From: Candidatus Omnitrophota bacterium | GTDB lineage: Bacteria; Omnitrophota; Gorgyraeia; Zapsychrales; JBAZNR01 | Assembly (NCBI GenBank): GCA_041649175.1 | Contig: JBAZNR010000001.1 | Coordinates: forward strand, 514,332 to 578,331 | Length of the DNA stretch: 64,000 bases | Direction of reading: 5' to 3' | The notes under the pieces: model-generated | The model's input: the letters and a program-made list of their open reading frames with translations, nothing else | What the model was told of the DNA's origin: nothing | Database searches by the model: none | Translations under genes and position numbers: made by a program | Shown: piece by piece, positions 31,809-57,504 of the stretch | How positions within the stretch are numbered: the first letter of the stretch is position 1 | Layout of the letters: every line of letters begins with the position of its first letter

Positions 31809-33038
31809 ATGCCCGCTGAAAAGAAAACAAAAAAACCTTCAATTAGCCAAGCAGACGAATTAAAACTCTTACGGCGCATTACCGAGATCACCAGCTCTGA
31901 ATTGGACGTCCACAAAGTCCTTGATGAGGTGGTCCGTTTGGTGACTGAAGCCATTGGCGCGGATTCTGTTTTCATTTATCTGATCGATGAAAAGATAAAA
32001 AGTCTCGTTTTAATGGCCTCTAAAACTCCGCACCAGAAAGAGTTAGGAAAGATCAATTTAAAGATCGGAGAAGGAATTGCCGGATGGGTTGCCAAAGAAA
32101 ATAAATTGGTCGCTATCAAGAAAAACGCCTATCAGGATCCTCGTTTCAAAAGTTTTGATATTTTACCGGAAGACCGCTATGAGGCGCTTCTATCGGTTCC
32201 CATTATCTATAAGGGAAAGACCATTGGCGTTATCAATGTTCAGCATCGAAAACCGCATGATTATTTTTTAGGTACGACAAGCTTAATTGAGATCATTGCC
32301 AAACAAGTCGGCGGGGTTATCGAAAATGCTCTCCTCTTTGAACAAACTAAACAAAAAGCCAGCCAATTTGACAGCCTTGCCAAGGTGAGCCGAACGATCA
32401 CCTCCGAACATTATTTGGATGAGATCTTAAACTTGATCGTGGTTGTGACGGCGGAAATGCTCAATTCTAAAATATGTTCCATTATGTTATTGGATAGCAA
32501 AGGCGAAGAATTGGCTATTAAAGCTACTCAAAGCCTCAGTGAAGAATATAAAAAGAAACCCAATATTAAAGTCAATAATAGCTTAAGTGGTGAAGTCATT
32601 AAATCTAAAAAACCGATGTTCTTTGACGATGTCCGCAGTGAAGAAAAATATGTTTATCGTGATCTGGCGGCCAAAGAGAATTTAACATCCATGATCTCGG
32701 TGCCGATGATCGTCAAAGATAAAGCCATCGGCATCATCAATGTGTATACCAAAACTCCGCACCAATTCACCCAGGAAGAAATTGATTGTTTGCAAATGAT
32801 CGCAAATCAAGCGGCTATTGCCGTCGAGAATACAAAATTGATGGAAGAATCTCTCAAGGCCAAAGAAGCCTTGGAAACGCGCAAACTGATCGAGCGCGCC
32901 AAAGGGATTTTAATGCGGATGAATAATTTAGGTGAAGAAGCCGCGCATCGATTGATCCATAAAAAGAGCATGGATTCTTGCCGCTCGATGAAAGAAATTG
33001 CGGAGTCGATCATTCTGGTTTCGGAGTTCAAGAATTAA
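31809..33038 (+). CDS. GAF-GAF-ANTAR RNA-binding antitermination regulator
   Basis: Two GAF domains. C-terminal ANTAR signature ETRKLIERAKGILMRMNNLGEEAAHRLIHKKSMDSCRSMKEIAESII. Confidence 0.8.
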   Translation: MPAEKKTKKPSISQADELKLLRRITEITSSELDVHKVLDEVVRLVTEAIGADSVFIYLIDEKIKSLVLMASKTPHQKELGKINLKIGEGIAGWVAKENKLVAIKKNAYQDPRFKSFDILPEDRYEALLSVPIIYKGKTIGVINVQHRKPHDYFLGTTSLIEIIAKQVGGVIENALLFEQTKQKASQFDSLAKVSRTITSEHYLDEILNLIVVVTAEMLNSKICSIMLLDSKGEELAIKATQSLSEEYKKKPNIKVNNSLSGEVIKSKKPMFFDDVRSEEKYVYRDLAAKENLTSMISVPMIVKDKAIGIINVYTKTPHQFTQEEIDCLQMIANQAAIAVENTKLMEESLKAKEALETRKLIERAKGILMRMNNLGEEAAHRLIHKKSMDSCRSMKEIAESIILVSEFKN

Positions 33039-33064
33039 AATTAAGAGTACCTCAAAAAAAGTTC

Positions 33065-33093
33065 TTGACAAAATCATCAGGCAATCATATACT
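33065..33093 (+). promoter_or_regulatory. Sigma70-like promoter for the amtB-glnK leader (TTGACA-N17-TATACT)
   Basis: Read directly from the sequence. Confidence 0.55.
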
Positions 33094-33123
33094 TCCATTG
33101 TAATTAAGTAGGGCAACGAAGTC

Positions 33124-33158
33124 CTCTTAAGATCGATGCTGGTCTTAAGAGTTTTTTT
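33124..33158 (+). terminator. Leader terminator/attenuator 1 upstream of amtB
   Basis: ctcttaaga-N10-tcttaagag followed by ttttttt. Confidence 0.6.
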
Positions 33159-33223
33159 ATGTGGGCAAAGACGTCCGACAGGTAAGTTTACTCGTCGGAT
33201 TATTTTTTTAAAATGGGCATTGA

Positions 33224-33271
33224 GGCCCTCTTAAAAACCAGCGCTGGTTTTCAAGAGGGCCTTTTTCTTTA
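33224..33271 (+). terminator. Leader terminator/attenuator 2 upstream of amtB
   Basis: ggccctcttaaaaacc-agcgct-ggtttttcaagagggcc followed by tttttcttt. Shares the cctcttaa motif with hairpin 1. Confidence 0.65.
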
Positions 33272-33340
33272 TCGAGACAACGACGTCTTTTTTAGGCCAC
33301 TGGCGGTTAATAGCAGTAAAAACAATTCAAGGAGGATGAA

Positions 33341-34576
33341 ATGGAAATGATCAATGCAGGTGATACAGCGTGGGTTTTGATTTCTTCTGCGCTAGTTATG
33401 TTAATGACACCCGGCCTAGCCTTTTTTTATGGCGGTATGGTCCGGCGCAAAAATGTTTTGAGTATTTTAATGCAGTGCTGTGTTATTTTAGGTTTGATCA
33501 GCGTGCAGTGGGTTTTGTTCGGCTATAGCCTTTCTTTTGCTCCGGGAAAAGGATTTTGGGGCGGTTTTGCATGGGCGGGGCTTAACGGTGTTGGTTTGGA
33601 ACCGTATGCGGATTATGCCGCCACCATTCCTCACCAAGCTTTTATGATCTTTCAAGCAATGTTTGCCATCATCACGCCAGCTCTTATTATCGGTGCTTTT
33701 GCCGAGCGGATGAAGTTCTCGGCGTTTCTCATCTTCATCTTATTGTGGGCTACCTTAGTATATGATCCTATTTGCCATTGGGTTTGGGGCATCGGCGGAT
33801 GGTTGAGAACCATGGGCGCATTGGATTTTGCAGGCGGAACCGTTGTTCATATTAGCGCCGGTATTGCCGCTTTAGCAACAGCCTTAGCTATTGGAAAACG
33901 AAAAGACTTAAACGGCCATGTTCCAGCGCCGCATAATCTTCCCTTTGTTGTTTTGGGAACCGGTTTACTGTGGTTTGGATGGTTTGGGTTTAACGCGGGC
34001 AGTGCTTTGGCGGCTAATGGTTTAGCGGTGAATGCTTTTGTGGTCACTAATACGGCTGCTGCTGCTGCGGGTTTAAGCTGGGCCTTAATTGAATGGATCC
34101 GCGTCGGAAAACCAACTATTTTTGGTTTTTGTTCTGGCGTTGTTGCCGGACTCGTTGCCATCACACCGGCAGCCGGATTTGTTAATGTTATCTCGGCCAT
34201 CATCATCGGCTTATTGGTGAGCGTATTTTGCTATACAGCCGTGGCGATTATCAAACCGAAATTGGGATACGATGATTCTCTAGACGCCTTCGGTGTTCAC
34301 TGCGTTGGCGGGATCTGGGGAGCCTTAGCAACGGGTTTATTTGCCACTAAGTCTATCAATGCGGCTGGGGCAGACGGGTTATTTTATGGTAACCCAGCCC
34401 AGTTTGTCATTCAGCTAAAAGCTGTTTTAATAACCGTTGTCTATAGCTTTGTGGTGAGTTTCGTGATCTACAAGGTTGTGGACTTGGTCGTTGGTATGCG
34501 CGTTAAAGAAGAAGACGAAAATGTCGGTCTTGATCTTACACAGCATCACGAACGGGCTTATACGGTTTTAGAATAA
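33341..34576 (+). CDS. amtB: Ammonium transporter (Amt family)
   Basis: MEMINAGDTAWVLISSALVMLMTPGLAFFYGG..., 11-12 TM. RBS aaggagg. Confidence 0.95.
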   Translation: MEMINAGDTAWVLISSALVMLMTPGLAFFYGGMVRRKNVLSILMQCCVILGLISVQWVLFGYSLSFAPGKGFWGGFAWAGLNGVGLEPYADYAATIPHQAFMIFQAMFAIITPALIIGAFAERMKFSAFLIFILLWATLVYDPICHWVWGIGGWLRTMGALDFAGGTVVHISAGIAALATALAIGKRKDLNGHVPAPHNLPFVVLGTGLLWFGWFGFNAGSALAANGLAVNAFVVTNTAAAAAGLSWALIEWIRVGKPTIFGFCSGVVAGLVAITPAAGFVNVISAIIIGLLVSVFCYTAVAIIKPKLGYDDSLDAFGVHCVGGIWGALATGLFATKSINAAGADGLFYGNPAQFVIQLKAVLITVVYSFVVSFVIYKVVDLVVGMRVKEEDENVGLDLTQHHERAYTVLE

Positions 34577-34658
34577 ATGACGGTGTGCTTTGCGCCGCAA
34601 AAATTGCGGCGCAAAGCACAGTTATTCCATAAATTGCGCACTCATTAAGGAGAAAACT

Positions 34659-35000
34659 ATGAAACTTGTCGTTGCAATTATACAACCACACAAATTAGAG
34701 TCGGTTAAAAAAGCCTTATACGCGGCCGATATTAATTTGATCACGGTTACTGAAGTTTTAGGCCACGGTCAGCAAAAAGGCGTCACCGAAGTTTACCGTG
34801 GTTCTAAAGAGACGGGAAATCTTTTACGAAAGATCCGTATCGAGATCGCCGTCAATGATAACTTTGTCGAACCGACGGTCAAAGCCATCATTAAGGGCGC
34901 TAAGTCGGGAAAGATAGGCGATGGAAAGATCTTTGTTACGTCATTAGAGCGCTGTATCCGTATTAGAACGGAAGAAGAAGGCTCTAAGGCCATCGGGTAA
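34659..35000 (+). CDS. glnK: Nitrogen regulatory protein P-II
   Basis: [20 protein letters not shown]...[10 protein letters not shown] (T-loop region). 113 aa. The ORF track extends further upstream, but the start at 34659 carries an RBS (aaggag). Confidence 0.9.
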
Positions 35001-35169
35001 GTATTTTTAAACCGCTTGGTTTTTCAGAAATCAGGCGGCAAGGGGCGAGGTTAATTCTATTGACGCTGTGCGAAAAGGTTGGTAAGATTTTAGCCTATTA
35101 TTTCGCCGGCGTTAATAGATTTAACTTTTTAACGATCACAAGGATTTTGTCAAAAGGAGGCCGGTTATT

Positions 35170-37353
35170 ATGGGAAAATCAACAAGGCTCCAGGAGATTC
35201 AGGCTTTAGCGAATCTTAACGGAGGAAATTCGTTGGAGGAAAAAATGATTAATGAATTATCTGAAGTAAAGAGTAACCATTCCGTCGCCGATCTTTACGG
35301 CAAAGATGTTTTTAGTCTTAAGGTGATGTGTAATTGTTTGTCAGAAAAGGCTTTTAAATCAATTAGTGCAACCATGAAAGAAGGCGGCCGCCTTGACCCT
35401 ACTATTGCCGATGAAGTTGCTGAGGCAATGAAAAATTGGGCTGTTTCAAAAGGGGCAACACATTTTACGCATTGGTTTCAGCCTTTGACCGGCACTACCG
35501 CCGAAAAACATGATGCCTTTATTGATCCAGATGGAGAAGGCGGAACTGTTCTGAAATTTTCTGGCAAAGAGTTGATCCAAGGTGAGCCCGACGCATCAAG
35601 CTTTCCCTCAGGTGGTTTACGCGCCACATTTGAAGCCCGCGGTTATACAGGCTGGGATCCAACGTCCCCCGCCTTTATTAAAAAAGGGCCGGAAGGTGCC
35701 ACACTTTGTATTCCAACTTTTTATATCGGCTACCATGGCGAAGCGTTAGACAAAAAAACACCTCTCCTTCGTTCCATGACAGCTCTTTCAAAACAAGTTT
35801 GTCGTCTGGCGAATTTGTTTGGCATTGAGATTAAAGGGAAACGTGCTTATTGCACGCTTGGCCCCGAACAGGAATATTTTCTAATCGATAAAAATCATTA
35901 TGAAGCTCGTATTGATTTAGTTCAGACCGGCCGCACACTTTTTGGTTCCAAACCGGCCAAACATCAACAACAAGAAGATCATTATTTTGGCGCCGTTAAA
36001 CCGCGCGTGATGGCTTTCATGGAAGACTTGGACCGCACATTATGGGGTTTAGGTATTCCTTCCAAAACACGCCACAACGAAGTTGCTCCCGCGCAATATG
36101 AAATGGCTCCGATCTTTGAAGATCTTAACGTCGGCGTTGATCACAATATGATTGCGATGGAAGTGATGCGCCAACTGGCTGACAAACACGGCTTGGTTTG
36201 TTTGTTGCACGAAAAACCTTTTGCCGGTATTAATGGCTCTGGAAAACATAATAACTGGTCTATTGTTGGCCCCGATGGAAAGAATTGGCTCTATCCTGGT
36301 AAAACACCGCACGATAATGCAAAATTTTTAACCCTGCTCTGTGCGGTTATTAAAGCTGTCGATACGTATGCTGATCTTTTGCGCGTCACGGTTGCTTCTG
36401 CCGGTAACGATCATCGTCTGGGTGCTAACGAAGCGCCGCCGGCGATTGTTTCAATTTTCTTAGGCGATCAATTGACGGATATCATTGAGCAGATCGAAAA
36501 GGGCGGCGCCAAAACATCCAAACAAGGAAGCGCTATTAACATCGGCGTTGATTCTATGCCAAACCTTGCCAAAGATACAACGGATCGTAATCGTACATCA
36601 CCTTTTGCATTTACGGGTGCGAAATTCGAATTCCGCGCGGTTGGTTCCAATATGAACCCTTCCGCCGCCAACATGGTTTTAAATACCATTGTGGCCGAAG
36701 CAATTAGTGATATCTGCAATGAACTCGAAACAGCCAAAAAATCCGGTAAGGATTTTAACGCTTCTTTGCAAAAAATTCTGCAAAGCATTATCAAAAATCA
36801 CAAACGTGTTCTCTATAATGGCGATAACTATGTTCCGGAATGGCATGCTGAAGCTAAAAAACGCGGGCTGCCGAATTTCAAATCGACCCCGGAAGCTCTG
36901 GAAGCCATCAAACTCAAAAAGAACATCGCGGTTTTGGTGAAGCATGGCGTTTTGAGCGAAAAAGAACTTGCGTCGCGTTATGAAATTAACAAACACGCTT
37001 ATGCAACGGTGATTGACCTCGAGGGAAATTGCGCGCTTTCAATGGCCCGTACGCAATTAATTCCTGCGGCGGTTGAATATCAAAAAGAGCTCTCCGAAAC
37101 GATTAAGACCGTCGGAGCAAGCGGCAAAACCACATCCCAGAAAAAGGTTTTAAAAACCATTTCCGGGTTGATTGACGAAGCCTTTGCAACTTGCGATACG
37201 TTGGAAGCGGCAATTCATAAACATGATTCTGCCAAAACCAACGCGGCGATGGTTGAGCTTCGTGAATCCATTGATGCGCTGGAAGGTTTTGTCCCGAGCA
37301 ATATCTGGCCGGTACCGTCCTACGCAGAAATGCTTCTGATGAATGCGCTTTAA
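35170..37353 (+). CDS. glnN: Glutamine synthetase type III
   Basis: At 727 aa the length and architecture are typical of GSIII. Catalytic-domain-like blocks are present (e.g. FGIEIKGKRAYCTLGPEQEYFLID). Confidence 0.8.
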   Translation: MGKSTRLQEIQALANLNGGNSLEEKMINELSEVKSNHSVADLYGKDVFSLKVMCNCLSEKAFKSISATMKEGGRLDPTIADEVAEAMKNWAVSKGATHFTHWFQPLTGTTAEKHDAFIDPDGEGGTVLKFSGKELIQGEPDASSFPSGGLRATFEARGYTGWDPTSPAFIKKGPEGATLCIPTFYIGYHGEALDKKTPLLRSMTALSKQVCRLANLFGIEIKGKRAYCTLGPEQEYFLIDKNHYEARIDLVQTGRTLFGSKPAKHQQQEDHYFGAVKPRVMAFMEDLDRTLWGLGIPSKTRHNEVAPAQYEMAPIFEDLNVGVDHNMIAMEVMRQLADKHGLVCLLHEKPFAGINGSGKHNNWSIVGPDGKNWLYPGKTPHDNAKFLTLLCAVIKAVDTYADLLRVTVASAGNDHRLGANEAPPAIVSIFLGDQLTDIIEQIEKGGAKTSKQGSAINIGVDSMPNLAKDTTDRNRTSPFAFTGAKFEFRAVGSNMNPSAANMVLNTIVAEAISDICNELETAKKSGKDFNASLQKILQSIIKNHKRVLYNGDNYVPEWHAEAKKRGLPNFKSTPEALEAIKLKKNIAVLVKHGVLSEKELASRYEINKHAYATVIDLEGNCALSMARTQLIPAAVEYQKELSETIKTVGASGKTTSQKKVLKTISGLIDEAFATCDTLEAAIHKHDSAKTNAAMVELRESIDALEGFVPSNIWPVPSYAEMLLMNAL

Positions 37354-37383
37354 TTAGCGCTTTACGCAGTTATTAAAAGCGAA

Positions 37384-37416
37384 GGGAAAAGGGGCGCGAA
37401 CCGCGCCCCTTTTCCC
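37384..37416 (+). terminator. Terminator-like hairpin after glnN
   Basis: gggaaaaggggcgcg-aacc-gcgccccttttccc. Confidence 0.55.
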
Positions 37417-37449
37417 TAGTCAATATTTACAATAGGTAGTATAATCCTT

Positions 37450-38139
37450 ATGATTTTGATCATTAAACATATTGCTGTGGAAGGGCCGGGGACCATTGCG
37501 TCGTTCTTTCAAAAGAAGAAAACACTAAAAACAATTGAGCTTAGCGCTGGCGATCCGTTACCTCGCGACCTAAAAGGCGTTGAGGCCGTGATCGTCATGG
37601 GCGGCCCGATGAATGTTGACGAAGAAGACAAATATCCGTTTCTTAGAGATGAAAATATTTTTATCCAGAACGTCTTAAAGAAAGAAATTCCGTATTTGGG
37701 TATTTGTTTGGGAAGTCAGCTTTTAGCCAAGGCCTCCGGAGCGAAAGTTGCCAAGTCACCGGTAGAAGAGATTGGCTGGTTTAAGGTTTCTTTAGAGAAA
37801 GATCCGATCTTTGAGAATTTAGAAAACAATATTGATGTTTTTCAGTGGCATGGGGATACATTCGATATTCCCAAGAGTGGAAAACTTTTAGCGACGGCCA
37901 CCGGATGCCATCATCAAGCGCTAAAAGTAGGAACAAATGCTTACGGACTTCAATTTCATGTTGAAGTAACGGGCAGGATCATTGATAGCTGGATAAAAGC
38001 ACATTTTAAAGGCGACACGCGAAAACAAAAATCAGAAGAAATGATAAGCACTTATTTAAAACTCAAAAGTGCTTTTAATAGAAATGCAGAAACTGTGTAC
38101 CAGAATTTTGAAAAGATTATTGAGCAAAGTAAGCAGTAA
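37450..38139 (+). CDS. Class I glutamine amidotransferase-like protein
   Basis: GATase1 triad context: GICLGSQLL (Cys nucleophile) and ...LQFHVEV (His). Confidence 0.7.
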   Translation: MILIIKHIAVEGPGTIASFFQKKKTLKTIELSAGDPLPRDLKGVEAVIVMGGPMNVDEEDKYPFLRDENIFIQNVLKKEIPYLGICLGSQLLAKASGAKVAKSPVEEIGWFKVSLEKDPIFENLENNIDVFQWHGDTFDIPKSGKLLATATGCHHQALKVGTNAYGLQFHVEVTGRIIDSWIKAHFKGDTRKQKSEEMISTYLKLKSAFNRNAETVYQNFEKIIEQSKQ

Positions 38140-38174
38140 GTAAAATTTTTTTAAATGAATCTGCCTAAAGATTA

Positions 38175-38228
38175 GGCAAATTCTTCTGCCTCTTTATATT
38201 CTTTCTTGACTCGCAGAAGAATTTGCCT
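38175..38228 (+). promoter_or_regulatory. 15-bp perfect inverted repeat (GGCAAATTCTTCTGC ... GCAGAAGAATTTGCC) upstream of nadE
   Basis: Seen directly. A 22-nt loop contains ttgact. Candidate operator or RNA element. Confidence 0.3.
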
Positions 38229-38278
38229 CGCTGTCACATTCTGGAAGAATGTAGCGGGGCATAATTAAGAAGAGTCCC

Positions 38279-39895
38279 ATGATACGCATCGCCTTAGCGC
38301 AAATCAATCCTACCGTCGGTGATCTTAAGGGAAATGCCTTAAAGATCATTGATTTTATCCGAAAGGCTCAAGCAGCTAACGCGGATATTGTCGCCTTTCC
38401 GGAATTAGCCGTTTGCGGTTATCCGCCGGAAGATCTGCTTTTAAAAGAACATTTCATCAGCGAAAATATCAAAACTCTTAAAGACATCGCTGCCCATGCA
38501 AAAAAAATTTCCGTGATCGTTGGTTTTGTAGATAGGGATAAAAAGAAGAATATTTATAATGCCGCGGCTTTACTTTCCGATAGGCGCATCAAAGGAATTT
38601 ATCATAAAGAACAGCTTCCCAATTACGGTGTTTTTGACGAAAAAAGATATTTTACGGCAGGCACAAAAAATCCTATTTTTAGCGTTAAGGGAATAAAATT
38701 TGCCGTCAATATTTGTGAGGATATTTGGCTTGAAACGGGGCCGCATAAAACTCAAGTTAAAAAAGGCGCTAAATTTCTTATCAATATCTCTTCATCACCG
38801 TATCACGCGGGAAAACTGCACGAGCGCCAGGCGCTTTTAAAAACCAGAGCCAATCAGGTGAAAGCGCCCATTTTTTATGTGAATATCGTTGGAGGGCAGG
38901 ACGAACTTGTCTTTGACGGCGCTAGCATGATCTTTGATAAAAAAGGAAAAACCATTGCCGCCGGAAAACAATTTGAAGAGGATATGATCTTTGCGGATAT
39001 TCCTTTGGACGCGCAAACTAAAAATAAATCACCACGGCCATTAGGGGAAATCGAAGAAATTTATAAAGCGCTAACTTTAGGTACGCGTGATTATATCCGT
39101 AAAAACGGATTTAAAAAGGTAACCATTGGTTTAAGCGGAGGCATTGATTCCGCGCTGGTCGCGGCGATTGCCGTTGATGCTGTTGGTCAAGAAAATGTCA
39201 CGGCTGTTTCCATGCCGTCGCAGTATTCGTCTTTAGAAACGATCAGTGACGCGCGTAAAATAGCCAAAAATCTGGGAATAAGATTCTTAGAAATTCCCAT
39301 CATGAAGGTTTTTTCTGTCTTTTTAGAAACATTGGATCATGAATTTAAGGGACAAGCCAAAGACATTACCGAAGAAAACCTTCAAGCGCGCATTCGCGGC
39401 AATATTTTAATGGCTTTCTCTAATAAATTCGGCTGGCTGGTTTTAACGACGGGCAATAAAAGCGAAATTGCCACGGGGTATTGCACGCTTTACGGCGATA
39501 TGGCGGGAGGTTTCGCGGTCATTAAAGATGTTCCTAAAACAACCGTGTACAAATTAGCCAAGTATCGTAATTCTTTGAATTCCAATGCCGTTATTATGCA
39601 AAGCATTATTGACCGCGCTCCGACGGCAGAATTGCGGGAAAATCAAAAAGACCAAGATACACTTCCCGAATATGATCTTTTGGATAAAATTTTAAGCGAT
39701 TATGTGGAAGCGGACAAAAGTTTAAGCGATATCAATAAAAAGATCAATAACGCAAAAGTCATTAAAGATGTGATGCGTTTAGTGGACCGAAGCGAGTATA
39801 AACGCCGCCAGGCTCCGCCGGGTGTTAAGATTACGCCAAGAGCTTTTGGCCGGGATCGGCGATTTCCTATCGTCAATCAATACCGTGAGTTTTAA
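38279..39895 (+). CDS. nadE: Glutamine-dependent NAD+ synthetase (nitrilase domain plus NAD synthetase domain)
   Basis: N-terminal CN-hydrolase domain (MIRIALAQINPTVGD...ICED) and a C-terminal PP-loop SGGIDSALVAA. Confidence 0.9.
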   Translation: MIRIALAQINPTVGDLKGNALKIIDFIRKAQAANADIVAFPELAVCGYPPEDLLLKEHFISENIKTLKDIAAHAKKISVIVGFVDRDKKKNIYNAAALLSDRRIKGIYHKEQLPNYGVFDEKRYFTAGTKNPIFSVKGIKFAVNICEDIWLETGPHKTQVKKGAKFLINISSSPYHAGKLHERQALLKTRANQVKAPIFYVNIVGGQDELVFDGASMIFDKKGKTIAAGKQFEEDMIFADIPLDAQTKNKSPRPLGEIEEIYKALTLGTRDYIRKNGFKKVTIGLSGGIDSALVAAIAVDAVGQENVTAVSMPSQYSSLETISDARKIAKNLGIRFLEIPIMKVFSVFLETLDHEFKGQAKDITEENLQARIRGNILMAFSNKFGWLVLTTGNKSEIATGYCTLYGDMAGGFAVIKDVPKTTVYKLAKYRNSLNSNAVIMQSIIDRAPTAELRENQKDQDTLPEYDLLDKILSDYVEADKSLSDINKKINNAKVIKDVMRLVDRSEYKRRQAPPGVKITPRAFGRDRRFPIVNQYREF

Positions 39896-40012: not shown

Positions 40013-40231
40013 ATGACAACGGATACCATTAATCAATATTTCTCAACGGTGCAAAGCGGACAGATCTACCGTTGCGTTATCGAAACGACCGAAAAAATGC
40101 TGATCGAAAAAGCGTTGGCACAATCATCCGGTAATCAACTGATCGCGGCCAGGATCTTGGGGCTCAACCGTAATACATTACGTACCAAAATAAAAAAGCT
40201 TAAAATTGATTTTCGGGGATTCAAACTATGA
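40013..40231 (+). CDS. Stand-alone Fis-family (NtrC C-terminal-like) HTH DNA-binding protein, 72 aa
   Basis: ...IEKALAQSSGNQLIAARILGLNRNTLRTKIKKLKI matches the Fis/NtrC HTH_8 motif. The stop overlaps the gltB start (ATGA). Confidence 0.6.
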   Translation: MTTDTINQYFSTVQSGQIYRCVIETTEKMLIEKALAQSSGNQLIAARILGLNRNTLRTKIKKLKIDFRGFKL

Positions 40232-48177: not shown

Positions 48178-48203
48178 AGCTGTTAAGAAAAGAGGTTAAA
48201 GAA

Positions 48204-48246
48204 AGGCGCCCCGCCAAAAATTGGCGGGGCGCCTTTTTGATTTTTT
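48204..48246 (+). terminator. Rho-independent terminator
   Basis: aggcgccccgccaaaaattggcggggcgcct followed by ttttgatttttt. Confidence 0.85.
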
Positions 48247-49005: not shown

Positions 49006-49429
49006 AGCAAAAAAGATAACCGCGGATAACTTTCGGCCCTATGGCCGGGTTATTTTCTATCCCGGAAAGGCAAAAAAAAGCAAAAAAGTTAATTTATTTC
49101 GCATTGTTGTCAAAGAACCGGTTTATCGTGGCTGGAGGATCGCCTACCTTATTTTGCGCGATAAAATGATCAAGCGTTTAGAACAGCACCCGCATTCTTT
49201 TGAAAGCTTCGAACCTGTTACCGGCCAAACACTTCTTTATGTGGCCAGAAAACCACGTAAAAACCATATCAAATGTTTTTATTTGGATCGTCCCATCATC
49301 TTAAAGAAAGGTATTTGGCATGGGGTTGTAACACTTTCTAAGGAATCTGAAATAAAACTTACCGAAAATGCGAGCGTGCGCTGTGTTTATGCGCCTTTAG
49401 GGTGTTTGTTGGGGCCTTCGAAAAGATAA
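48971..49429 (+). CDS. Ureidoglycolate-lyase-like (AllA family) cupin protein. Start uncertain; overlaps the upstream gene.
   Basis: ITADNFRPYGRVI and HPHSFESFEPVTGQTLLYVA resemble AllA/PF04115 blocks. Confidence 0.45.
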   Translation: MTTTNSESISIKAKKITADNFRPYGRVIFYPGKAKKSKKVNLFRIVVKEPVYRGWRIAYLILRDKMIKRLEQHPHSFESFEPVTGQTLLYVARKPRKNHIKCFYLDRPIILKKGIWHGVVTLSKESEIKLTENASVRCVYAPLGCLLGPSKR

Positions 49430-49571
49430 AGTGATCTTTTTAAATTTTAGGGTTATTTTTAAGAAAGTGGCACGCTGATTATACTTGACTAACCGTTTTC
49501 AATGGATATAATGATGCTGTCTTAAAAAACGAATAACGACAATTTAGTTTTACAACAACAAGGAGGGGGAA

Positions 49572-49877
49572 ATGAAAAAAGTTGTTATTGGATTGGTTGC
49601 GTTGTTCGCGCTTGTATTTTTTGCATCGCCAAGTTTCGCGCTTTTAAGGAGAGATATACAGATCGCGCGCGGTGAAGTTGTCAGTACGGATATCATGAAC
49701 AGTCAAGTGACCATCAAAGACGGTGCCGGTGTTTTATCAACGTTCAATGTAGACGCTGGAACAGTCAGATCGCTTATGAAGGGGCAGCGTATCAATATTA
49801 TTCACAAGGCCGGCAGTAAAACAGCTCAAAATGTTTCTATCCAAGGTGCTGGCCGAGCCGGAAAAAAAGGATATTAG
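49572..49877 (+). CDS. Small secreted hypothetical protein (101 aa)
   Basis: Signal peptide MKKVVIGLVALFALVFFASPSFA. RBS aaggaggggg. Confidence 0.5.
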   Translation: MKKVVIGLVALFALVFFASPSFALLRRDIQIARGEVVSTDIMNSQVTIKDGAGVLSTFNVDAGTVRSLMKGQRINIIHKAGSKTAQNVSIQGAGRAGKKGY

Positions 49878-49916
49878 AGCGCTTAGGTTTTTAGTTTTGT
49901 AAGTTTCAAGCACTAA

Positions 49917-49957
49917 AAGATCCTCTACAGTCGATATGATGTTGTAGAGGATTTTTT
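49917..49957 (+). terminator. Rho-independent terminator
   Basis: aagatcctctaca-gtcgatatgatgt-tgtagaggat followed by ttttt. Confidence 0.75.
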
Positions 49958-50092
49958 AGGGAGTTTTTCCAAAAGAAATCTTTTTAAGAAGTACGGCAGC
50001 AGCGATCTTTCGTTTGACAGAGTAAGTTTATCTAATATATCGAAGGGCAGATTTTTCCCCATCGCATCAACGATTACGGCCTTTAGGATCAG

Positions 50093-51199
50093 ATGAAAAA
50101 AGCCATCCTATACCTTGAAGACGCAAAAACCTTTGAGGGCCGCTCTCTCCTCACGACAGGTGAATTCGCAGGTGAAGTTGTCTTTAATACCTCCCTTTGC
50201 GGCTATCAAGAAGTTTTGACCGATCCATCCTATGCCGGCCAGATCGTGGTGATGACTTATCCTTTGATCGGAAATTATGGCATCAATTTGGACGATATGG
50301 AGTCCAAAAAGATCTGGGTCAAAGGATTTATTGTCAAAGAATTCTGCCGCACTCCGTCCAATTTCCGCGCGACCAAATCACTCATTGATTATTTGAATGA
50401 AAATAATATCATGGCTGTTGAAGGCATTGATACGCGTGCCCTAACGCGTCATTTGCGCCTATTCGGAGCCATGAAGGCGATGATCTCAACCGAAGATTTT
50501 GATAAAAAAAGTTTAAGTAAGAAATTAAAAGCTGTTCCGTCCATGGAGGGCAGTGATTGGGTGCGAGAAGTTTCGTCAAAAGAAAAATATATTTGGGAAC
50601 CCGGGAAAAATTACCGCTTTCGTGTCGCGGCTATTGATTGCGGAATAAAATTCAATATTTTGCGCATCTTGGCAAACTTAGGATGTGAGACCCATGTTTT
50701 TCCGGCGACCGCTTCCGCTCAAGAGATAAGATCAATTAATCCCGACGGAATTTTCCTTTCCAACGGCCCCGGCGATCCGGCCGCGCTGCCATATATCATC
50801 AAAACCGTTCAGGAACTCATTGGCGTAGCGCCGATTTTTGGGATTTGCTTAGGGCATCAGATCTTAGGGTTGGCCCTAAAAGGGACAACGTATAAACTTA
50901 AATTCGGCCATCACGGTGCCAATCATCCCGTGAAAGACCTGAACTTAAATAAGATCGGTATTACATCGCAGAATCACGGATTTTGCGTAGACATTAACAG
51001 CCTTCCTAAAGAAGATGTTGAAATTACCCATATCAATCTTAACGATAATACTTTAGAGGGATTGCAGCATAAGAAATATCCGCTATTTTCCGTGCAATAT
51101 CATCCTGAAGCCGCTCCGGGCCCGCATGATGCTCAATATTTGTTTGAAAAATTTATCGGTTTAATGAATGAACATAAAAATAAGAAAGTTCCTGTGTAA
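50093..51199 (+). CDS. carA: Carbamoyl-phosphate synthase small (glutamine amidotransferase) subunit
   Basis: GATase triad region GICLGHQILGLA...HPE. Confidence 0.95.
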   Translation: MKKAILYLEDAKTFEGRSLLTTGEFAGEVVFNTSLCGYQEVLTDPSYAGQIVVMTYPLIGNYGINLDDMESKKIWVKGFIVKEFCRTPSNFRATKSLIDYLNENNIMAVEGIDTRALTRHLRLFGAMKAMISTEDFDKKSLSKKLKAVPSMEGSDWVREVSSKEKYIWEPGKNYRFRVAAIDCGIKFNILRILANLGCETHVFPATASAQEIRSINPDGIFLSNGPGDPAALPYIIKTVQELIGVAPIFGICLGHQILGLALKGTTYKLKFGHHGANHPVKDLNLNKIGITSQNHGFCVDINSLPKEDVEITHINLNDNTLEGLQHKKYPLFSVQYHPEAAPGPHDAQYLFEKFIGLMNEHKNKKVPV

Positions 51200-51202
51200 T
51201 TT

Positions 51203-54200
51203 ATGCCGCGCCGTAGTGATATAAAAAAGATTTTGCTCATTGGTTCAGGCCCCATTATTATCGGCCAAGCGTGCGAATTTGATTATTCGGGAACGCAAGC
51301 CTGTAAGGCGCTTCGGGAAGAAGGTTATGAAATTGTTCTGGTCAATTCCAACCCGGCCACCATTATGACGGATCCGGAAATTGCCGATCACACCTATATT
51401 GAGCCTTTAACAGCAGATTTTCTAGAACAGATCATCAAAAAAGAACGTCCCGATGCTGTTTTACCGACGCTGGGCGGACAAACCGGACTTAATTTAGCCG
51501 TTCAGCTTTATAAACGCGGTGTTTTTGAACAATACAATGTCAAGATGATCGGCGCCAATTATGAAGTTATTCAAAAGGCGGAAGACCGGGAATGTTTTAA
51601 GAAAGCCGTTCTTGAAGTCGGTTTAGATGTTCCCAAAAGCTGTTTTGCCCACACGCTGGAAGAAGCCAAAAAAGCGGTTGAGACAATCGGATTTCCTCTG
51701 ATCGTTCGCCCTAGCTATACCTTAGGCGGGACCGGCGGCGGCATTGTGCATGATATGGATGAACTGGAGCGCGTTGCTTCCTTAGGTTTAGAATCCAGCA
51801 TGATCGGCGAAGTTTTGATCGAAGAATCCATCGAAGGATGGAAAGAATATGAGCTGGAAGTTATGCGTGATTACAAAGACAATGTGGTCATTGTCTGCTC
51901 CATTGAAAATTTAGATCCGATGGGAATCCATACGGGTGATAGCATTACTGTGGCACCGGCGCAAACTTTGACCGATCGGGAATATCAGGAAATGCGTGAT
52001 GCCTCTATTCGCTTGATCCGGGAAATTGGCGTCGAGACGGGTGGTTCCAATATTCAATTCGCGGTTAATCCCCAAACCGGGCGTATGGTTGTTATCGAAG
52101 TTAATCCAAGAGTGTCGCGCTCATCGGCCTTGGCCAGTAAAGCAACGGGATTTCCTATCGCGAAATTTGCCGCGAAATTAGCAGTTGGGTATTCTTTGGA
52201 TGAAATTCGAAATGATATCACCAAAGAAACGCCTGCCTCGTTTGAACCGACCATTGATTATTGCGTTGTCAAAATTCCTCGGTTTACCTTTGAGAAATTT
52301 CCGGAAGCTAAAGATATTTTAGGTGTTTCCATGAAATCCGTCGGGGAAACGATGGCCATTGGGCGCACCTTTAAAGAAGCGTTGCAAAAAGGATTGCGCG
52401 GCCTGGAGATCGGCCATATCGGTTTGGACAATAAAATGGATTACCGCAACATTCCCGATGAGAAGATCGAATTAAAATTACGCCAACCGAATGCCTCGCG
52501 CATTTTTTATATTAAATATGCTCTGCAAAAAGGGATAAGCCAGAAAACGATTCATGAGTGGACCAAGATCGATCCTTGGTTTATCGCGCATATTGCCGAG
52601 ATCTTGGAATTTGAAAATACGCTCATCGAAACTTTCCAGAAAGAAAAGAATATTTCTGTGGAATTGTTACGACGGGCTAAAGAATTCGGGTTTAGTGATG
52701 CGCAGTTGGCGCAGATCATGGCCACCGATGAGCTAAAGGTGCGCCAACTGCGCAAGAAACTTGGGATAAAAGCGACCTTTAAATCGGTCGATACCTGTGC
52801 GGCAGAATTTGAAGCCTATACGCCGTATTATTATTCCACTTATGAAACAGAAGACGAAGCGGTTATCCAAGATGAAAAGCTCAATAAACTAAGCAAAGAA
52901 AAACGCAAAAAGATCATGATCTTAGGCGGCGGGCCTAATCGCATTGGACAAGGCATTGAGTTCGATTATTGCTGCTGCCATGCTTCGTTCGCTTTAAAAG
53001 AATTAGGTTATGAAACCATTATGGTCAATTCCAATCCCGAAACGGTTTCTACCGATTATGATACTTCCGACCGGTTATATTTTGAACCGCTCACCTTTGA
53101 AGATGTCATGAACATTGTGGATGTGGAAAAGCCAGATGGCATGATCGTACAATTCGGGGGACAAACACCGCTTAATTTAGCGCGCCGTTTACATAAAGCT
53201 GGAGTTCCCATTATCGGGACCAGTGTTGAGTCTATTGATCTGGCCGAAGACCGCAAGAAATTTTCGCAATTTATCGAGAAAATCGGATTGTCTCAACCCG
53301 CCAATGGTTCGGCAACGTCTGCCGAAAAGGCTATTGAGGTGGCATCTCGTATCGGCTATCCTGTTTTAGCCAGGCCTTCTTACGTTTTAGGCGGCCGGGC
53401 CATGCGCATTGTTTATGATAAAGAATCTTTATTGTCATTCATTGAAGAAGCAAAAGAAGTTTCTCAGGGGCATCCCATTCTCATTGATAAATTTATTGAA
53501 GACGCCATTGAAGTGGACGTTGACGGTATCTGCGACGGAGAAAAAACATTTGTCGCCGGAATTATGGAACATATTGAAAATGCCGGAATTCATTCGGGGG
53601 ATTCAGCCTGCGTTTTACCGCCGCATACTTTAAGCGAAGAGATCATTGCCGATATTAAGAAGTTTACTTGTTCCATCGCTCAAGGGTTAAAAGTGGTGGG
53701 GCTTTTAAATATTCAATTTGCCATCAAAGGAGAAACAATTTTCGTTTTGGAAGTTAATCCTAGGGCGTCGCGCACGGTTCCTTTTGTCAGCAAGGCCACA
53801 GGAACTCCGTTGGCAAAAATAGCCGCTCAAATCATGACCGGAAGAAAGGTGGACGACTTTAAATTTATTGATCCGCAAAGCTTGCTTCATGTCTCGGTCA
53901 AAGAATCGGTACTGCCGTTTTCGCGGTTTTCAGGTGTTGATATTGTTTTAGGGCCGGAAATGAAATCCACCGGGGAAGTGATGGGTATTGATATGACATT
54001 TGGCGCGGCCTTTGCCAAATCTCAGATCTGTGCCAACCAAGCACTGCCCAAAAAAGGAAAGATCTTCATCAGCGTCAATGACCAGGATAAACGTCACATC
54101 GTTTTTCTAGCAAAAAAGCTATTCGACCTAGGATTTAAACTGGTGGCAACCAAGGGAACGGTCAAAGTCTTACGTTCCAGCGGTGTGGACGTGGAAATGG

Positions 54201-54475
54201 TCGATAAATTTGGGGAAGGCAAAAACAATCTGTTGACATTAATTAAAAAAGGTGAGATAAATTTGATAATCAACACTCCTTCCGGTAAAAAAAGTCAATC
54301 GGATATGCGCGCTATTCGCGCAGCGGCAATTCTTTATAATATCCCGTGCATTACAACGCTTCAAGGGGCATGGGCGGCAGTGAATGGTATTGAGTCAAGT
54401 TTGCAAACAGATTTTTGCGTTCAATCCTTACAAGAATATTACAACCGAAGGAATGAGCAATGTGCGGTATCGTAG
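51203..54475 (+). CDS. carB: Carbamoyl-phosphate synthase large subunit
   Basis: Duplicated ATP-grasp domains (two [19 protein letters not shown] / [17 protein letters not shown] blocks) and a C-terminal MGS-like domain. 1090 aa. Confidence 0.95.
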
Positions 54476-55842
54476 GGGTTGCTAATCATAAACAAGCGGC
54501 AAAACTTGCCTTTTTAGGTTTGTACGCTCTGCAACATCGCGGCGAAGAAGCCTGTGGCATTGCCAGCTACGATGGCAAGAAAGTCCACCTCAGTAAAGCC
54601 TTAGGATTAGTCGCCGACCGGTTCAGCGAAGACATCCTCAAAGGCCTTAAAGGTAAAGTGGCTATCGGCCACTCCCGGTATTCAACGACCGGCTCCAGCA
54701 ATACGAAAAATATCCAGCCATTTTTAGTCACTCATAAAAATAAACCCGTTGCGATCTCTCACAACGGGAATCTAACCAATACTCAAACCCTTTATAAGAA
54801 ACTCGAAGAAGAAGGCTCTATTTTTCAGACCACGATGGATTCGGAGATCATTATCCATCTTTTGGCTAAAACAAAAAATGGAGACCTGAAAAGCTGGTTT
54901 ACGGCCGTATTTACGCAATTAGAAGGGGCTTATTCGGCTGTTTTTCTCGTCGGAGATTGTTTGGTCGGCGTGCGCGATCCGCAAGGCTTTAGGCCTTTAT
55001 GTCTAGGAAAAGTGGATGATGCTTATGTTTTAGCCAGCGAAACATGCGCCTTGGATTTGATTAAGGCAGAATTTATCCGCGAGATCGAACCCGGAGAAAT
55101 GGTCTTTATTAAAAATGGACAAATTGAGTCGCATTTCTTGCCGATGGTTGCCGGAAAAAACAAATCTTATTGTATTTTTGAGAATATCTATTTTGCCCGC
55201 CCGGACAGCAATATTTTTAATGACAATGTTTATGAAGTACGTAAGCGTTTAGGGATGCAGTTAGCTAAAGAAAGCCCGGTTGCGGGCGCTGATTTTGTGA
55301 TGGCTATTCCGGATTCAGGTAACTATGCCGCGGTAGGATATTCACAACAATTAAATATTCCCTTAGAGATCGGGATGATCCGCCATCATTATATTGGGCG
55401 TACCTTTATTCAGCCGTCGCAGTTTTTGCGTGATTTTAAAGTGCGGGTGAAGCTTAATCCTATCAATCATATTTTAAAAGATAAAAAGATCATTGTGGTG
55501 GAAGATTCTATTGTGCGCGGGACCACCAGCCGCAGCCGTATTGAAGAATTACGTAAAGCCGGCGCTAAAGAGATCCATATGCGCATCAGCTGTCCGCCGA
55601 TCAGGTTTCCTTGTTTCTTTGGCATCGATTTTCCTAACCGAAAAGAGTTGATCGCCGCCAATAAAACGGTCAAAGAGGTTGCTGATTTTATTCGGGTCGA
55701 TTCGCTGGAATATTTAAGCCTAGAGGGCATGTTAAGCGTTATGAAAGATTCAAAGAATTTTTGCCACGCGTGTTTTTCCGGAAAATATCCGGCTCCGATA
55801 CCTAAAAACAAAAGCAAATATTTATTAGAAGGGGCATTGTAA
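54460..55842 (+). CDS. purF: Amidophosphoribosyltransferase
   Basis: MCGIVGV N-terminal nucleophile Cys, a PRTase domain and a C-terminal Cys cluster. Overlaps carB by 16 nt. Confidence 0.95.
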
Positions 55843-55845
55843 AAA

Positions 55846-57504
55846 ATGAGTAAATTCATTTTTGTCACGGGTGGTGTTGTTTCTAGTTTAGGCAAAGGCA
55901 TTGCGGCGGCCTCCATTGGAAAACTCCTTGAGGCGCGCGGGCTTAAGGTAACTCTGATCAAGTGTGATCCTTATATCAATGTGGATCCCGGCACCATGAA
56001 CCCTTATCAGCACGGGGAAGTTTATGTTACTCAGGACGGCGCTGAAACAGACCTAGATCTAGGCCATTATGAGCGCTTCACTAACGCCCATCTTACCCAG
56101 GATAATAATATTACGACGGGAAAGATCTATTATTCGGTCATTACCAAAGAACGCCGCGGTGATTATTTAGGCAAAACCGTCCAGATCATTCCGCATATTA
56201 CCGATGAAATAAAAAAATGCATTAGAACGGTTTCGCATGAACGCGATGTTGATGTTACCATTGTTGAGATCGGCGGAACGGTTGGCGATATTGAAAGTTT
56301 GCCTTTTCTGGAAGCCATTCGTCAACTGCGCTGGGAATTGGGGATGTATTACGCGATCAATATTCATGTAACGCTTTTGCCGTTCATAAAGTCTGCCGGG
56401 GAACAAAAAACAAAACCGACGCAACACAGCGTCGGGAGGCTTCGAGAAATTGGTATTATTCCCGATATCTTGTTGTGCCGCACGGAGCGGACTATTCCCA
56501 AAGAACAAAAAGAAAAAATAGCCCTTTTTTGCAATGTGGAACGGGAAGCCGTTATTGAGGGGGTAGATGTAAAACATATTTACGAAGTTCCGCTGGCGCT
56601 GCGCAAAGAAAATTTAGATGACCTTATTTTAAAGAAATTAAATATTAAAAGTGAAGAGCGTGACTTAAAAGAGTGGCGGGAAATTGTTATTAAACGCGTC
56701 AAAACTCCTACCAAGGAAGTTAATATTTCGGTTGTCGGCAAATATATTGCCTTACCGGATGCCTATAAATCAATTTATGAAGCGTTAGTTCATGGGGGTA
56801 TTTATAATGACACAAGAGTTGTCATCAATAAAGTTGACTCAGAAGAGTTGACCGAGCATAACGCTCAAAAGAAATTAGGCGGGTCGGACGGCATTCTTAT
56901 TCCCGGCGGATTTGGGACCAGGGGGATCGAAGGAAAGATCCGGGCTGTGGAATATGCCCGTGTTAATAAGATCCCTTATTTTGGGATCTGTCTAGGTATG
57001 CAGGTGGCGACCATCGAATTTGCCCGTCATATTTGTGGACTTAAGGATGCTAACTCGACGGAATTCCATAAAGAAACGAAATATCCGGTCATTAGCCTTT
57101 TGGAAGAGCAAGCCCATGTCAAGAATATGGGTGCCACCATGCGCTTAGGCTCGTATCCATGTAAATTAATGAAACATACGTTAAGCGCTCAAGCCTATAA
57201 GAAAGAGAATATTACGGAACGGCATCGTCATCGTTATGAACTTAATAATCAATATCGGAAAATGTTCGAAAAAAAAGGCATGATCTTTGCCGGGTTAAAT
57301 ACGCGTAAAGATTTAGTGGAAATTGTTGAGCTTAAAAATCATCCGTGGTTTGTCGGCTGCCAGTTTCATCCGGAATTTCAGTCGAAGCCTGACCGGGCAC
57401 ATCCTTTGTTTGCACATTTTATTGCCGCGTCATTAGAAAAACGGTCCCAGTCGAACCGTAAACTGAAGAATACGGAAGAATCGATCTCTGAAGGGCAGCA
57501 GTAA
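55846..57504 (+). CDS. pyrG: CTP synthase
   Basis: [19 protein letters not shown]-terminus and the GATase domain GICLGMQ. Confidence 0.95.

Follow-up and report, generated by a model that had tools for sequence, protein, structure and literature searches.

Attenuation of nitrogen genes by ANTAR proteins is a known kind of regulation, shown in Geobacter in 2010 and predicted widely in 2012. In Geobacter sulfurreducens, GnfK/GnfR acts through ANTAR antitermination at the leaders of amtB, glnK and nif genes (Ueki & Lovley 2010, PMC2995071). According to the rule for ANTAR RNA, the target carries a six-base loop (hexaloop) with A at position 1 and G at position 4, and a second hairpin overlaps the terminator (Ramesh et al. 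2012, PMC3369931). With a dual-hexaloop model derived from EutV, ANTAR nitrogen regulons were predicted in Desulfotomaculum acetoxidans and D. reducens, with the genes for PII, the ammonium transporter, glutamine synthetase and glutamate synthase as targets, and no GAF-ANTAR protein had been characterised as of that study (PMC3369931), the architecture being listed in reviews. Here we describe a 64,000-nucleotide stretch of a Candidatus Omnitrophota genome (contig JBAZNR010000001.1; the window), in which a block of glutamine-related genes at 31809-57504 starts with a gene for a GAF-GAF-ANTAR regulator. The window is a further example of ANTAR nitrogen attenuation and of another known kind of arrangement, the conserved operon neighbourhood. 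We consider it probable that the block is a conserved neighbourhood of separate units, in which direct ANTAR coupling can be read for amtB-glnK and for the gene of a GltS-related protein only. A literature search found no paper on this cluster, on a carA-carB-purF-pyrG operon, or on nitrogen regulation in Omnitrophota.

The regulator and its candidate targets were identified, like all genes below, by Pfam and NCBIfam profile matches on the open reading frames (ORFs) of the window:

31809-33038, + strand: gene of the GAF-GAF-ANTAR one-component regulator, 409 aa (Pfam GAF_2 twice, ANTAR)
33341-34576, + strand: amtB, ammonium transporter (PF00909 Ammonium_transp, 446 bits)
34659-35000, + strand: glnK (PII), 113 aa (PF00543; the longest ORF runs from TTG 34590)
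46537-48177, + strand: gene of a GltS-related flavin mononucleotide (FMN) TIM-barrel protein, 546 aa (partial PF01645)

The ANTAR domain of the regulator (PF03861, residues 351-402) scored 72.2 bits against a cutoff of 27.3, and residues 298-404 matched the PDB entries 6wsh (an RNA-bound ANTAR domain), 1s8n (Rv1626) and 4akk (NasR). The N-terminal input region consists of two GAF domains (138 bits). GAF1 is closest to the GAF domain of PtsP/EI-Ntr (NF008283, 4e-39; PDB 3ci6, 2e-23), which binds glutamine (PMC4848567). GAF2 is closest to the GAF domain of NifA (TIGR01817, 5e-27). The NifA domain binds 2-oxoglutarate or receives PII signals. Homologues of the regulator, judged from the best 120 of 2686 with E <= 1e-10, were 72-79% identical, and every source-named one came from Omnitrophota. 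For glnK, the PF00543 match starts at residue 24 of the long ORF and the orthologues have 113 aa; the true start is likely ATG 34659, with an AAGGAG Shine-Dalgarno sequence ahead of it.

The amtB leader (33094-33340) contains four hexaloop hairpins with the loops AACGAA, AAAGAC, AUUGAG and AACGAC, each closed by a C-G pair. The consensus of the hairpins in the window is GGC-ANNGAN-GYC, with A1 and G4 in the six-base loop. They follow a near-consensus promoter, and the first three belong to units with a terminator each:

33065-33093, + strand: sigma-70-like promoter of amtB-glnK, TTGACA-17-TATACT (11/12 consensus)
33110-33158, + strand: attenuator unit 1, AGGGC-AACGAA-GUCCU (33110-33125) abutting terminator 33124-33151 and U7
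33162-33209, + strand: attenuator unit 2, UGGGC-AAAGAC-GUCCG (33162-33177), its 3' arm doubling as the 5' arm of the terminator at 33173-33200, with a U tract after it
33215-33269, + strand: attenuator unit 3, GGGC-AUUGAG-GCCC (33215-33228), with terminator 33222-33263 (17 bp) and a U tract
33274-33289, + strand: fourth hexaloop hairpin, GAGAC-AACGAC-GUCUU, followed by UUUU

In unit 3, the hairpin loop and 3' arm sit within the 5' arm of the terminator. Units 2 and 3 thus overlap their terminators fully, as is expected of an ANTAR RNA.

A second set of hairpins precedes the GltS-related gene:

46374-46402, + strand: promoter of the GltS-related gene, TTGACA-17-TATATT (11/12 consensus)
46407-46525, + strand: leader hairpins at 46407-46434 (loop AAUGAC), 46443-46470 (AAUGAA), 46485-46506 (AAAGAA) and 46514-46525 (AAUGAU)

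Stems in this leader are extended, at 8-11 bp, and the first hairpin by itself has a terminator-like score. The fourth hairpin is small, and its 3' arm lies in the Shine-Dalgarno site.

The motif GRCAWNGAVGYY occurs 8 times in the 64-kb window, compared with 1.17 expected occurrences, and none of 100 shuffles reached 8. Seven of the eight copies lie on the + strand, all within the amtB and GltS-related leaders, which gives seven A1/G4 hexaloops in two leaders. Hexaloop matches at 12556 (in a cold-shock gene) and 62556 (- strand, in an ORF) fall within coding sequence and were taken as chance. When all 13 intergenic regions were scanned with relaxed criteria, A1/G4 hexaloop hairpins were found only before amtB and the GltS-related gene, apart from a dubious one before nadE; there was none in the window in the GSIII or carA leaders or before gltBD. 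Hairpin units differ much in the loop length of their terminators, and the hairpin alone carries little information for alignment. Rfam, used with gathering thresholds and with E<=5, detected no glutamine, PyrR, NAD+ or other riboswitch between 31 and 58 kb, its sub-threshold matches falling on terminators only.

The amtB leader shares with the GnfR system the placement of terminators in amtB/glnK leaders, each preceded and overlapped by a conserved element, and the connection to nitrogen-limitation genes. The Geobacter GnfR site CAGGCAANGGCGCC (GGC-AANGGC-GCC), which is bound there by an ANTAR protein, has nearly the same sequence as the window hairpins (PMC2995071). However, GnfR is a kinase-activated REC-ANTAR response regulator, whereas the window encodes a one-component GAF-GAF-ANTAR protein beside its target, with three tandem terminators and no nif genes. 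With the predicted Desulfotomaculum regulons the window has in common A1/G4 hexaloops that overlap terminators before nitrogen genes, and the presence of several attenuators per genome. The EutV-type substrate is a close pair of hairpins (P1/P2), whereas the amtB hairpins of the window are 52, 52 and 60 nt apart, form no tight pair and have their own terminator each, and the GltS-related leader lacks a separate terminator. Finally, as in NasR/nasF of Klebsiella and in NasT/NasS, a ligand sensor is fused or coupled to ANTAR and the regulator gene lies beside the antiterminated operon; the Nas systems differ in using a NIT domain and nitrate/nitrite for nitrate assimilation, where the window has two GAF domains, ammonium uptake and an orphan FMN enzyme.

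These features are consistent with the following mechanism. The GAF domains, by their likeness to those of EI-Ntr and NifA, would sense glutamine and/or 2-oxoglutarate as the nitrogen signal, and low glutamine or high 2-oxoglutarate would free the ANTAR domains. The regulator is then predicted to hold the GGC-ANNGAN-GYC hairpins of the nascent amtB-glnK leader, so that the three tandem terminators would fail to form and amtB-glnK would be transcribed under nitrogen limitation. The same regulator may act on the related hairpins in the GltS-related leader, and GlnK may feed back on the regulator. GSIII, glutamate synthase (GOGAT), NadE and CarAB-PurF-PyrG would be expressed from their own promoters, with no ANTAR element in this genome. 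The picture of one co-regulated glutamine supercluster is therefore not borne out here, ANTAR-type elements being confined to amtB-glnK and the GltS-related gene, with a partial echo elsewhere in the phylum. Omnitrophota have very few cultured members, and the window offers a concrete, testable view of their nitrogen control, with a regulator, RNA sites and first targets, as well as a natural case of three ANTAR-type attenuators in series.

Comparable leaders were found in loci of relatives (numbered L001 and so on). Orthologous amtB leaders in L082, L084, L086 and L174 share the promoter-hairpin-terminator design with two to four units, and the first three of them also have an equivalent TTGACA/TATACT promoter. 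Canonical close P1/P2 pairs are present in L075, L076, L077, L082 and L086. The canonical order of promoter, P1, P2 and terminator precedes the GltS-related gene in L023, L029, L069, L070, L075, L076, L077 and L081, and in these leaders the P2 loop and 3' arm make the 5' arm of the terminator. In more distant Omnitrophota, hairpin-terminator units also precede GSIII (L023, L027), and hairpins were found in carA or pyrG leaders (L061 15028-15045, L069 11924-11939, L076 11398-11415, L079 11805-11816, L081 15060-15075). The distant carA/pyrG leaders carry one hexaloop hairpin (e.g. AAAC-AAAGGC-GUUU) that overlaps an intrinsic terminator directly 3' of a TTGACA/TATAAT promoter, the hairpin being single in L061, L076, L077 and L081. 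This suggests ANTAR-type attenuation of the car/pyr operon in distant Omnitrophota, not in the window.

In some relatives, small ORFs of 47-84 aa lie between two attenuator sets (L082 11519-11859, L174 11499-11705, L084 11217-11471). The spacer between regulator and amtB is much longer there, 0.7-0.9 kb; the window has no such small ORFs.

A bolder reading, which we put forward tentatively and do not favour, is that the GAF-GAF-ANTAR protein reads glutamine and/or 2-oxoglutarate directly as a one-component sensor and heads a phylum-wide, modular attenuator regulon. Such a regulon would always comprise amtB-glnK, usually the orphan FMN/Fe-S enzyme, and in some lineages GSIII and carAB/pyrG; the orphan enzyme would be specific to nitrogen starvation, and the supercluster would be the genomic trace of the regulon. 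If this holds, the enzyme would serve assimilation or redox specifically in nitrogen starvation.

The GltS-related protein, placed in the nitrogen-limitation response by its leader, had been called an archaeal-type GltS, a label that is not supported. It matches PF01645 only partially (65 bits, residues 292-418, profile positions 189-309 of 369), has no NCBIfam equivalog, and in a profile search against GltS in the PDB gave a marginal E=0.03. BLASTP against the GltB of the window aligned only the region of the GGTGxSP FMN-phosphate motif. The AlphaFold2 model had a mean predicted local distance difference test score of 62.8, with values below 50 for the N-terminal 100 residues, and Foldseek led to generic FMN barrels; the modelled fold is accordingly read as a generic FMN TIM barrel and nothing finer. 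Besides GGTGxSP, a four-cysteine motif near the N-terminus, CxxCx3Cx3C, is invariant in the protein. Its sequence is kept at 73-79% identity in Omnitrophota, Moorella, Desulfosporosinus, Syntrophorhabdus, Syntrophus and Brevinematales, in at least 5 phyla, and source annotations read 'glutamate synthase-related' or 'FMN-binding glutamate synthase family protein'. It is a strongly constrained orphan enzyme with no curated family equivalog or solved relative, and 'nitrogen-regulated orphan FMN/Fe-S enzyme' is the safer label.

The genomic context of the gene varies. Outside Omnitrophota, where one or two neighbouring genes were checked in each of a few loci, it lies beside IclR regulators and a PTAC protein (Moorella, L017), galT/galK and a transposase (Brevinematales, L024), an ion-channel-domain protein (Desulfosporosinus, L064), or a gene without Pfam match (Syntrophorhabdus, L038). 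A tblastn search with gltB found no glutamine amidotransferase (GATase) or GXGXG part beside it in other non-Omnitrophota loci, and wherever checked, no adjacent gene supplied such a partner, except for the complete gltB of the window. A gltD paralogue occupies the same position in L023, L069, L075, L076, L077 and L081, and an NfnA/NfnB-like pair adjoins the gene in the Omnitrophota locus L070. Pairing of the protein with a GltD-like subunit was considered; the idea was weakened when, in L070 as the one locus examined for this, the 'gltD paralogue' proved to be half of an NfnAB/SudAB-like pair. In all seven loci, a promoter and an attenuator separate the gltD paralogue from the GltS-related gene.

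The remaining genes of the block are as follows:

35170-37353, + strand: glutamine synthetase type III (GSIII), 727 aa (PF12437 GSIII_N 252 bits, Gln-synt_C, Gln-synt_C-ter)
37450-38139, + strand: stand-alone class-I GATase (GATase1), GuaA-N/PRK07053-like (PF00117, 82 bits)
38279-39895, + strand: nadE, Gln-dependent NAD+ synthetase (CN_hydrolase and NAD_synthase; NF010588 756 bits, above cutoff)
40013-40231, + strand: gene of a 72-aa Fis/NtrC-C-terminal-type helix-turn-helix (HTH) protein, HTH_8 (NF002517 1.6e-12; TIGR01818 ntrC C-terminus 6e-10)
40228-44766, + strand: gltB, GOGAT large subunit (GATase_2, Glu_syn_central, Glu_synthase, GXGXG)
44859-46298, + strand: gltD, GOGAT small subunit (TIGR01317, 703 bits)
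48342-48536, + strand: 64-aa ORF
48529-49005, + strand: PF04020 membrane protein with four transmembrane segments
48950-49429, + strand: ureidoglycolate-lyase-like cupin (weak match)
49572-49877, + strand: 101-aa ORF with hydrophobic N-terminus
50093-51199, + strand: carA
51203-54475, + strand: carB
54460-55842, + strand: purF, N-terminus MCGIVG
55846-57504, + strand: pyrG

All 14 genes named in the original prediction were found by Pfam and NCBIfam at the positions, in the order and on the strand given there. Four small, unrelated genes at 48342-49877 (the 64-aa ORF, the PF04020 protein, the cupin-like protein and the 101-aa ORF, whose product is possibly exported) had been omitted. GSIII has the GSIII_N and catalytic domains and, with 727 aa, a length within the expected range of about 700-730 aa; a four-domain GltB followed by a TIGR01317 GltD is the bacterial NADPH-GOGAT arrangement. 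GATase1 adjoins GSIII also in L023, L082, L084, L086 and L174; its NF005458 score of 173 bits lies under the cutoff of that model. The stop codon of the 72-aa HTH gene overlaps the gltB start (ATGA), and the gene is predicted to be translationally coupled to gltB. An HTH gene ahead of gltB also occurs in L174 (called HTH_8), L079 and L023.

The first three small genes (48342-49429) overlap and have no annotated tie to glutamine. The same trio, or a pair from it, precedes carA in L171, L172, L173 and L175 as well, and the trio is a conserved component of the block despite the missing annotated link. The genes carA-carB-purF-pyrG form a conserved tight unit as predicted, but the overlaps attributed to it come down to one: the junctions are +3, -16 and +3 nt, and only carB and purF overlap. 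Altogether, the block joins ammonium uptake, the glutamine synthetase (GS)/GOGAT cycle and four or five glutamine-amide-consuming enzymes. While amtB-glnK and gltB-gltD are usual pairs, the window goes further and brings GS, GOGAT, AmtB/PII, NadE, a GATase and CarAB-PurF-PyrG together within 25 kb.

The signals between these genes speak for several transcription units:

34583-34621, + strand: intercistronic hairpin amtB/glnK, 16 bp, without U tract (read from sequence)
35060-35088, + strand: promoter-like site of GSIII, TTGACG-17-TAAGAT, TG-extended (weaker)
37383-37417, + strand: palindromic GC-rich hairpin after GSIII, 16 bp, terminator-like, with a poor U tract on the + strand
46321-46357, + strand: intrinsic terminator after gltD, 17-bp stem, U-rich tail
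48200-48238, + strand: strong intrinsic terminator after the GltS-related gene, 18-bp stem, U tract
49485-49512, + strand: promoter of the 101-aa ORF, TTGACT-16-TATAAT (11/12 consensus)
49920-49952, + strand: terminator hairpin after the 101-aa ORF, U tract to 49957
50014-50041, + strand: candidate promoter of carA, TTGACA-16-TATATC (imperfect)

In a sigma-70 scan, the number of promoter-like sites did not exceed that of shuffles overall, and weight was given only to 11/12 matches. A weak promoter-like site lies ahead of the HTH gene, and the best such sites after the terminator at 48200-48238 reach 9/12. Internal terminators are predicted at 37383 (after GSIII), 46321 (after gltD), 48200 (after the GltS-related gene) and 49920 (after the 101-aa ORF). 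Together with the promoter-like sites at 33065, 35060, 46374 and 49485, they predict that the block is not a single transcriptional or regulatory entity. Judged from these signals, the run is probably a string of seven or eight separate transcription units, and of at least five. The units would be the regulator; amtB-glnK; GSIII (possibly with GATase1 and nadE); fis-gltB-gltD; the GltS-related gene; the three small genes; the 101-aa ORF; and carA-carB-purF-pyrG. Such sets of related operons, adjacent across genomes without being one transcript, were reportedly termed 'uber-operons' by Lathe et al. in 2000.

Long, GC-rich, near-perfect hairpins with 3-4-nt loops form a family-like set in many spacers (34583-34621, 37383-37417, 46321-46357, 48200-48238, 57525-57546). 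With some members lacking U tracts, the set may represent RNA-stability or REP-like elements rather than terminators.

Comparative genomics showed that the arrangement is not unique to this assembly. The regulator, CarB and the GltS-related protein have identical counterparts in a Candidatus Omnitrophota metagenome-assembled genome, on a contig of 1.23 Mb. The whole order from the ANTAR gene to pyrG recurs in a second genome, on NCBI contig CAZEUO010000017.1 (overlapping loci L174 and L173), with 78% identity for the regulator and 81% for carB. There, PfkB takes the place of the GltS-related gene, and the order extends both ways, with the giant protein, sucD and thiolase upstream and rpe downstream. 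Halves of the block recur on about ten further Omnitrophota contigs. The left module, regulator-amtB-PII-GSIII-GATase1-NadE-(HTH)-gltB, was found in four further lineages (L082/L083, L084/L085, L086/L087, L174), sometimes with toxin-antitoxin pairs or a second GS between the genes. The right module was found in 7 lineages (L168-L173, L175), and carA-carB-purF-pyrG followed by rpe is conserved in L168-L173. The same genes are thus adjacent in several independently assembled, diverged genomes, and flanking synteny (the giant protein, sucD, in some cases sucC, thiolase and rpe) is kept. The slot after gltD is variable: L171 reads gltB-gltD-PPDK_N-PF04020-...-carA, L172 and L175 have variants of gltD-(GltS-related gene)-PfkB-...-carA, and the more distant L079 has HTH-gltB-gltD-GltS-related gene-carA-carB.

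Two observations concern insertions within the cluster. Toxin-antitoxin pairs (PhdYeFM/ParE, HicB, DUF433/DUF5615) lie between cluster genes at L084 19853-20359, L086 18192-18410 and 20339-20816, and L173 3255-3775. At L086 13332-14798, an additional type-I glutamine synthetase (Gln-synt_N and Gln-synt_C) lies between glnK and GSIII.

A gltB-anchored metagenome scan returned mostly non-Omnitrophota gltBD loci and served as an outside control only. None of the 80 loci outside the clade had ANTAR, GSIII, GATase1, nadE, the GltS-related gene, carA, carB or pyrG; 73 had gltB-gltD only, three had an amtB match (in L107 along with those for glnK and purF), and a weak purF-like match was present in another seven. 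Because none of these 80 loci showed the arrangement, the judgement that it is unusual stands. By a rough, window-corrected hypergeometric estimate, the chance of finding 11 related genes among 18 consecutive ones is <=1e-10 when counted by genes and about 1e-6 to 1e-8 when counted by transcription units, figures that depend on the assumed genome totals. The co-localisation is real and far beyond chance. The arrangement is also inherited and unusual, and only loosely constrained.

Several observations weigh against the interpretation of the block as a conserved neighbourhood of separate units with two ANTAR-coupled leaders. In the amtB leader, each terminator has one adjacent hairpin and not a close P1/P2 pair, and the hairpin of unit 1 overlaps the stem base of its terminator by 2 nt only, both structures coexisting in the centroid fold. 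The GltS-related leader is non-canonical, with extended hairpins, no separate overlapping terminator and a last hairpin that touches the Shine-Dalgarno site; its closest relative, in L175, is also atypical and has a single such hairpin. The GAF ligands are predicted from family resemblance alone, and the putative promoters and terminators are no more than matches to a consensus. U tracts are missing from several strong hairpins, including the one that separates amtB from glnK, a pair transcribed together in other bacteria. Strong hairpins in this region are therefore not all terminators; some, notably 37383-37417, may be stability elements instead, and GSIII-GATase1-nadE may form one transcript. 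As for the neighbourhood itself, carA lies about 28 kb (L082, on a 340-kb contig) and 15 kb (L084, on a 400-kb contig) beyond gltB, with genes such as those for an ECF sigma factor, VWA, Lnt, glpK and glpD in between. Moreover, three of the four loci with a gltB 71-72% identical to that of the window (L089, L090, L131) have no other cluster genes in their readable flanks, which comprised 10 kb upstream in L089 and, in both L090 and L131, about 8.5 kb beyond the 3' end of gltD; the fourth, L088, had almost none. The distant car operon and these bare flanks indicate that selection for full juxtaposition is weak.

Among the alternatives, the whole block might be a co-regulated nitrogen regulon, in which PII interactions and a palindrome bound by the HTH protein, as extra shared signals besides ANTAR attenuation, would tie GSIII, NadE, GOGAT and CarAB-PurF-PyrG to nitrogen status, with clustering as the outcome of selection for co-expression. 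The palindrome was found at these positions:

38162-38178, unstranded: TGCCTAA-AGA-TTAGGCA, the sole window copy, 102 nt before nadE
L023 9943-9957 and 21326-21340; L061 9951-9965; L069 3960-3974; L070 9949-9963; L075 9950-9964; L076 6322-6336; L077 8877-8891: copies in relatives

In seven Omnitrophota loci, the form TGCCTwA-N3-TwAGGCA stands between the attenuator of the GltS-related gene and the gene itself, at a distance of 36 to 44 nt from the latter; L023 has a further copy before fis/gltB. Its geometry resembles NtrC-type sites, and the 72-aa HTH_8 protein is, speculatively, a candidate binder. Recurrence of the palindrome before the GltS-related gene, fis/gltB and nadE, together with the predicted coupling of the HTH gene to gltB, would fit a common regulon. 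The hairpin-terminator units before GSIII and before carA or pyrG in distant members point the same way, and the phylum therefore links those operons to the same kind of switch. However, the window has one palindrome copy, and one or more copies arise in 22 of 100 shuffles; no common motif precedes GSIII, fis-gltB and carA in the window; binding by the HTH protein is pure conjecture; and relatives tolerate large insertions between the units. We regard a block-wide regulon as unlikely. The main use of the supercluster is as a marker of the clade for annotation and synteny, and it reveals no new mechanism.

One long operon, or a small number of very long ones, transcribed from the amtB promoter with internal hairpins as RNA-stability or processing elements, would account for the shared strand, the short gaps throughout and the poor or missing U tracts at 34583-34621, 37383-37417 and 57525-57546. 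Against this, stems of 17-18 bp with U-rich tails lie at 46321-46357 and 48200-48238, with a promoter-like site after each (11/12 and 9/12, respectively), and the junctions in relatives hold toxin-antitoxin pairs, PfkB or PPDK_N, or 15-28 kb of unrelated genes. The strand bias, furthermore, spans the whole 60 kb and not the cluster alone: up to 59.6 kb, almost all ORFs lie on the + strand, and 30 of 32 two-kilobase bins have a positive GC skew, with values of about zero in the other two. One-strand orientation is common to the entire region and not peculiar to the cluster, and we consider the long operon very improbable.

Least credible of all is a chance juxtaposition, a chimeric metagenome-assembled genome or a recently acquired island: the slot after gltD does vary (GltS-related gene in the window, L079 and L175, PfkB in L172 and L173, PPDK_N in L171), and the identity of the GltS-related gene across phyla suggests horizontal movement of that one gene, but assemblies made independently, from different samples and with different pipelines, show the same order (Logan L001, whose 8.1 kb between part of gltB and the start of carB are identical; NCBI GCA_964515035.1; JGI contigs), GC content (0.40-0.48) and GC skew are uniform, flanking synteny is kept, and the chance estimate is 1e-6 or less.

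Upstream of the block lie gltX, a phoR-like kinase gene, pstSCAB-phoU, the cold-shock gene, a 2950-aa ORF, sucCD, a DRTGG protein gene and a thiolase gene, as well as a CstA gene on the minus strand. Downstream are tRNA-Leu, rpe and a REC-GGDEF gene. These flanks are unrelated to nitrogen metabolism, and the boundaries of the block as originally drawn therefore hold. The 2950-aa product is encoded by a single ORF at 15270-24122 and has a 2481-aa counterpart at the same syntenic position in L174.

In the GATase1-nadE spacer, a perfect 15-bp inverted repeat, GGCAAATTCTTCTGC...23 nt...GCAGAAGAATTTGCC, is followed by a 7-bp hairpin (38174-38240); Rfam gave no match for it, and the spacer lacks conservation among relatives. 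Directly after pyrG, a tRNA-Leu(GAG) at 57641-57722 was missed at the Rfam gathering threshold and found by an Rfam E-value scan and ARAGORN. About 20 nt of its 3' end (CTCTCCCCGCGCATTGATTT) are repeated about 105 nt downstream, at 57826-57845, in a manner that resembles a remnant att site.

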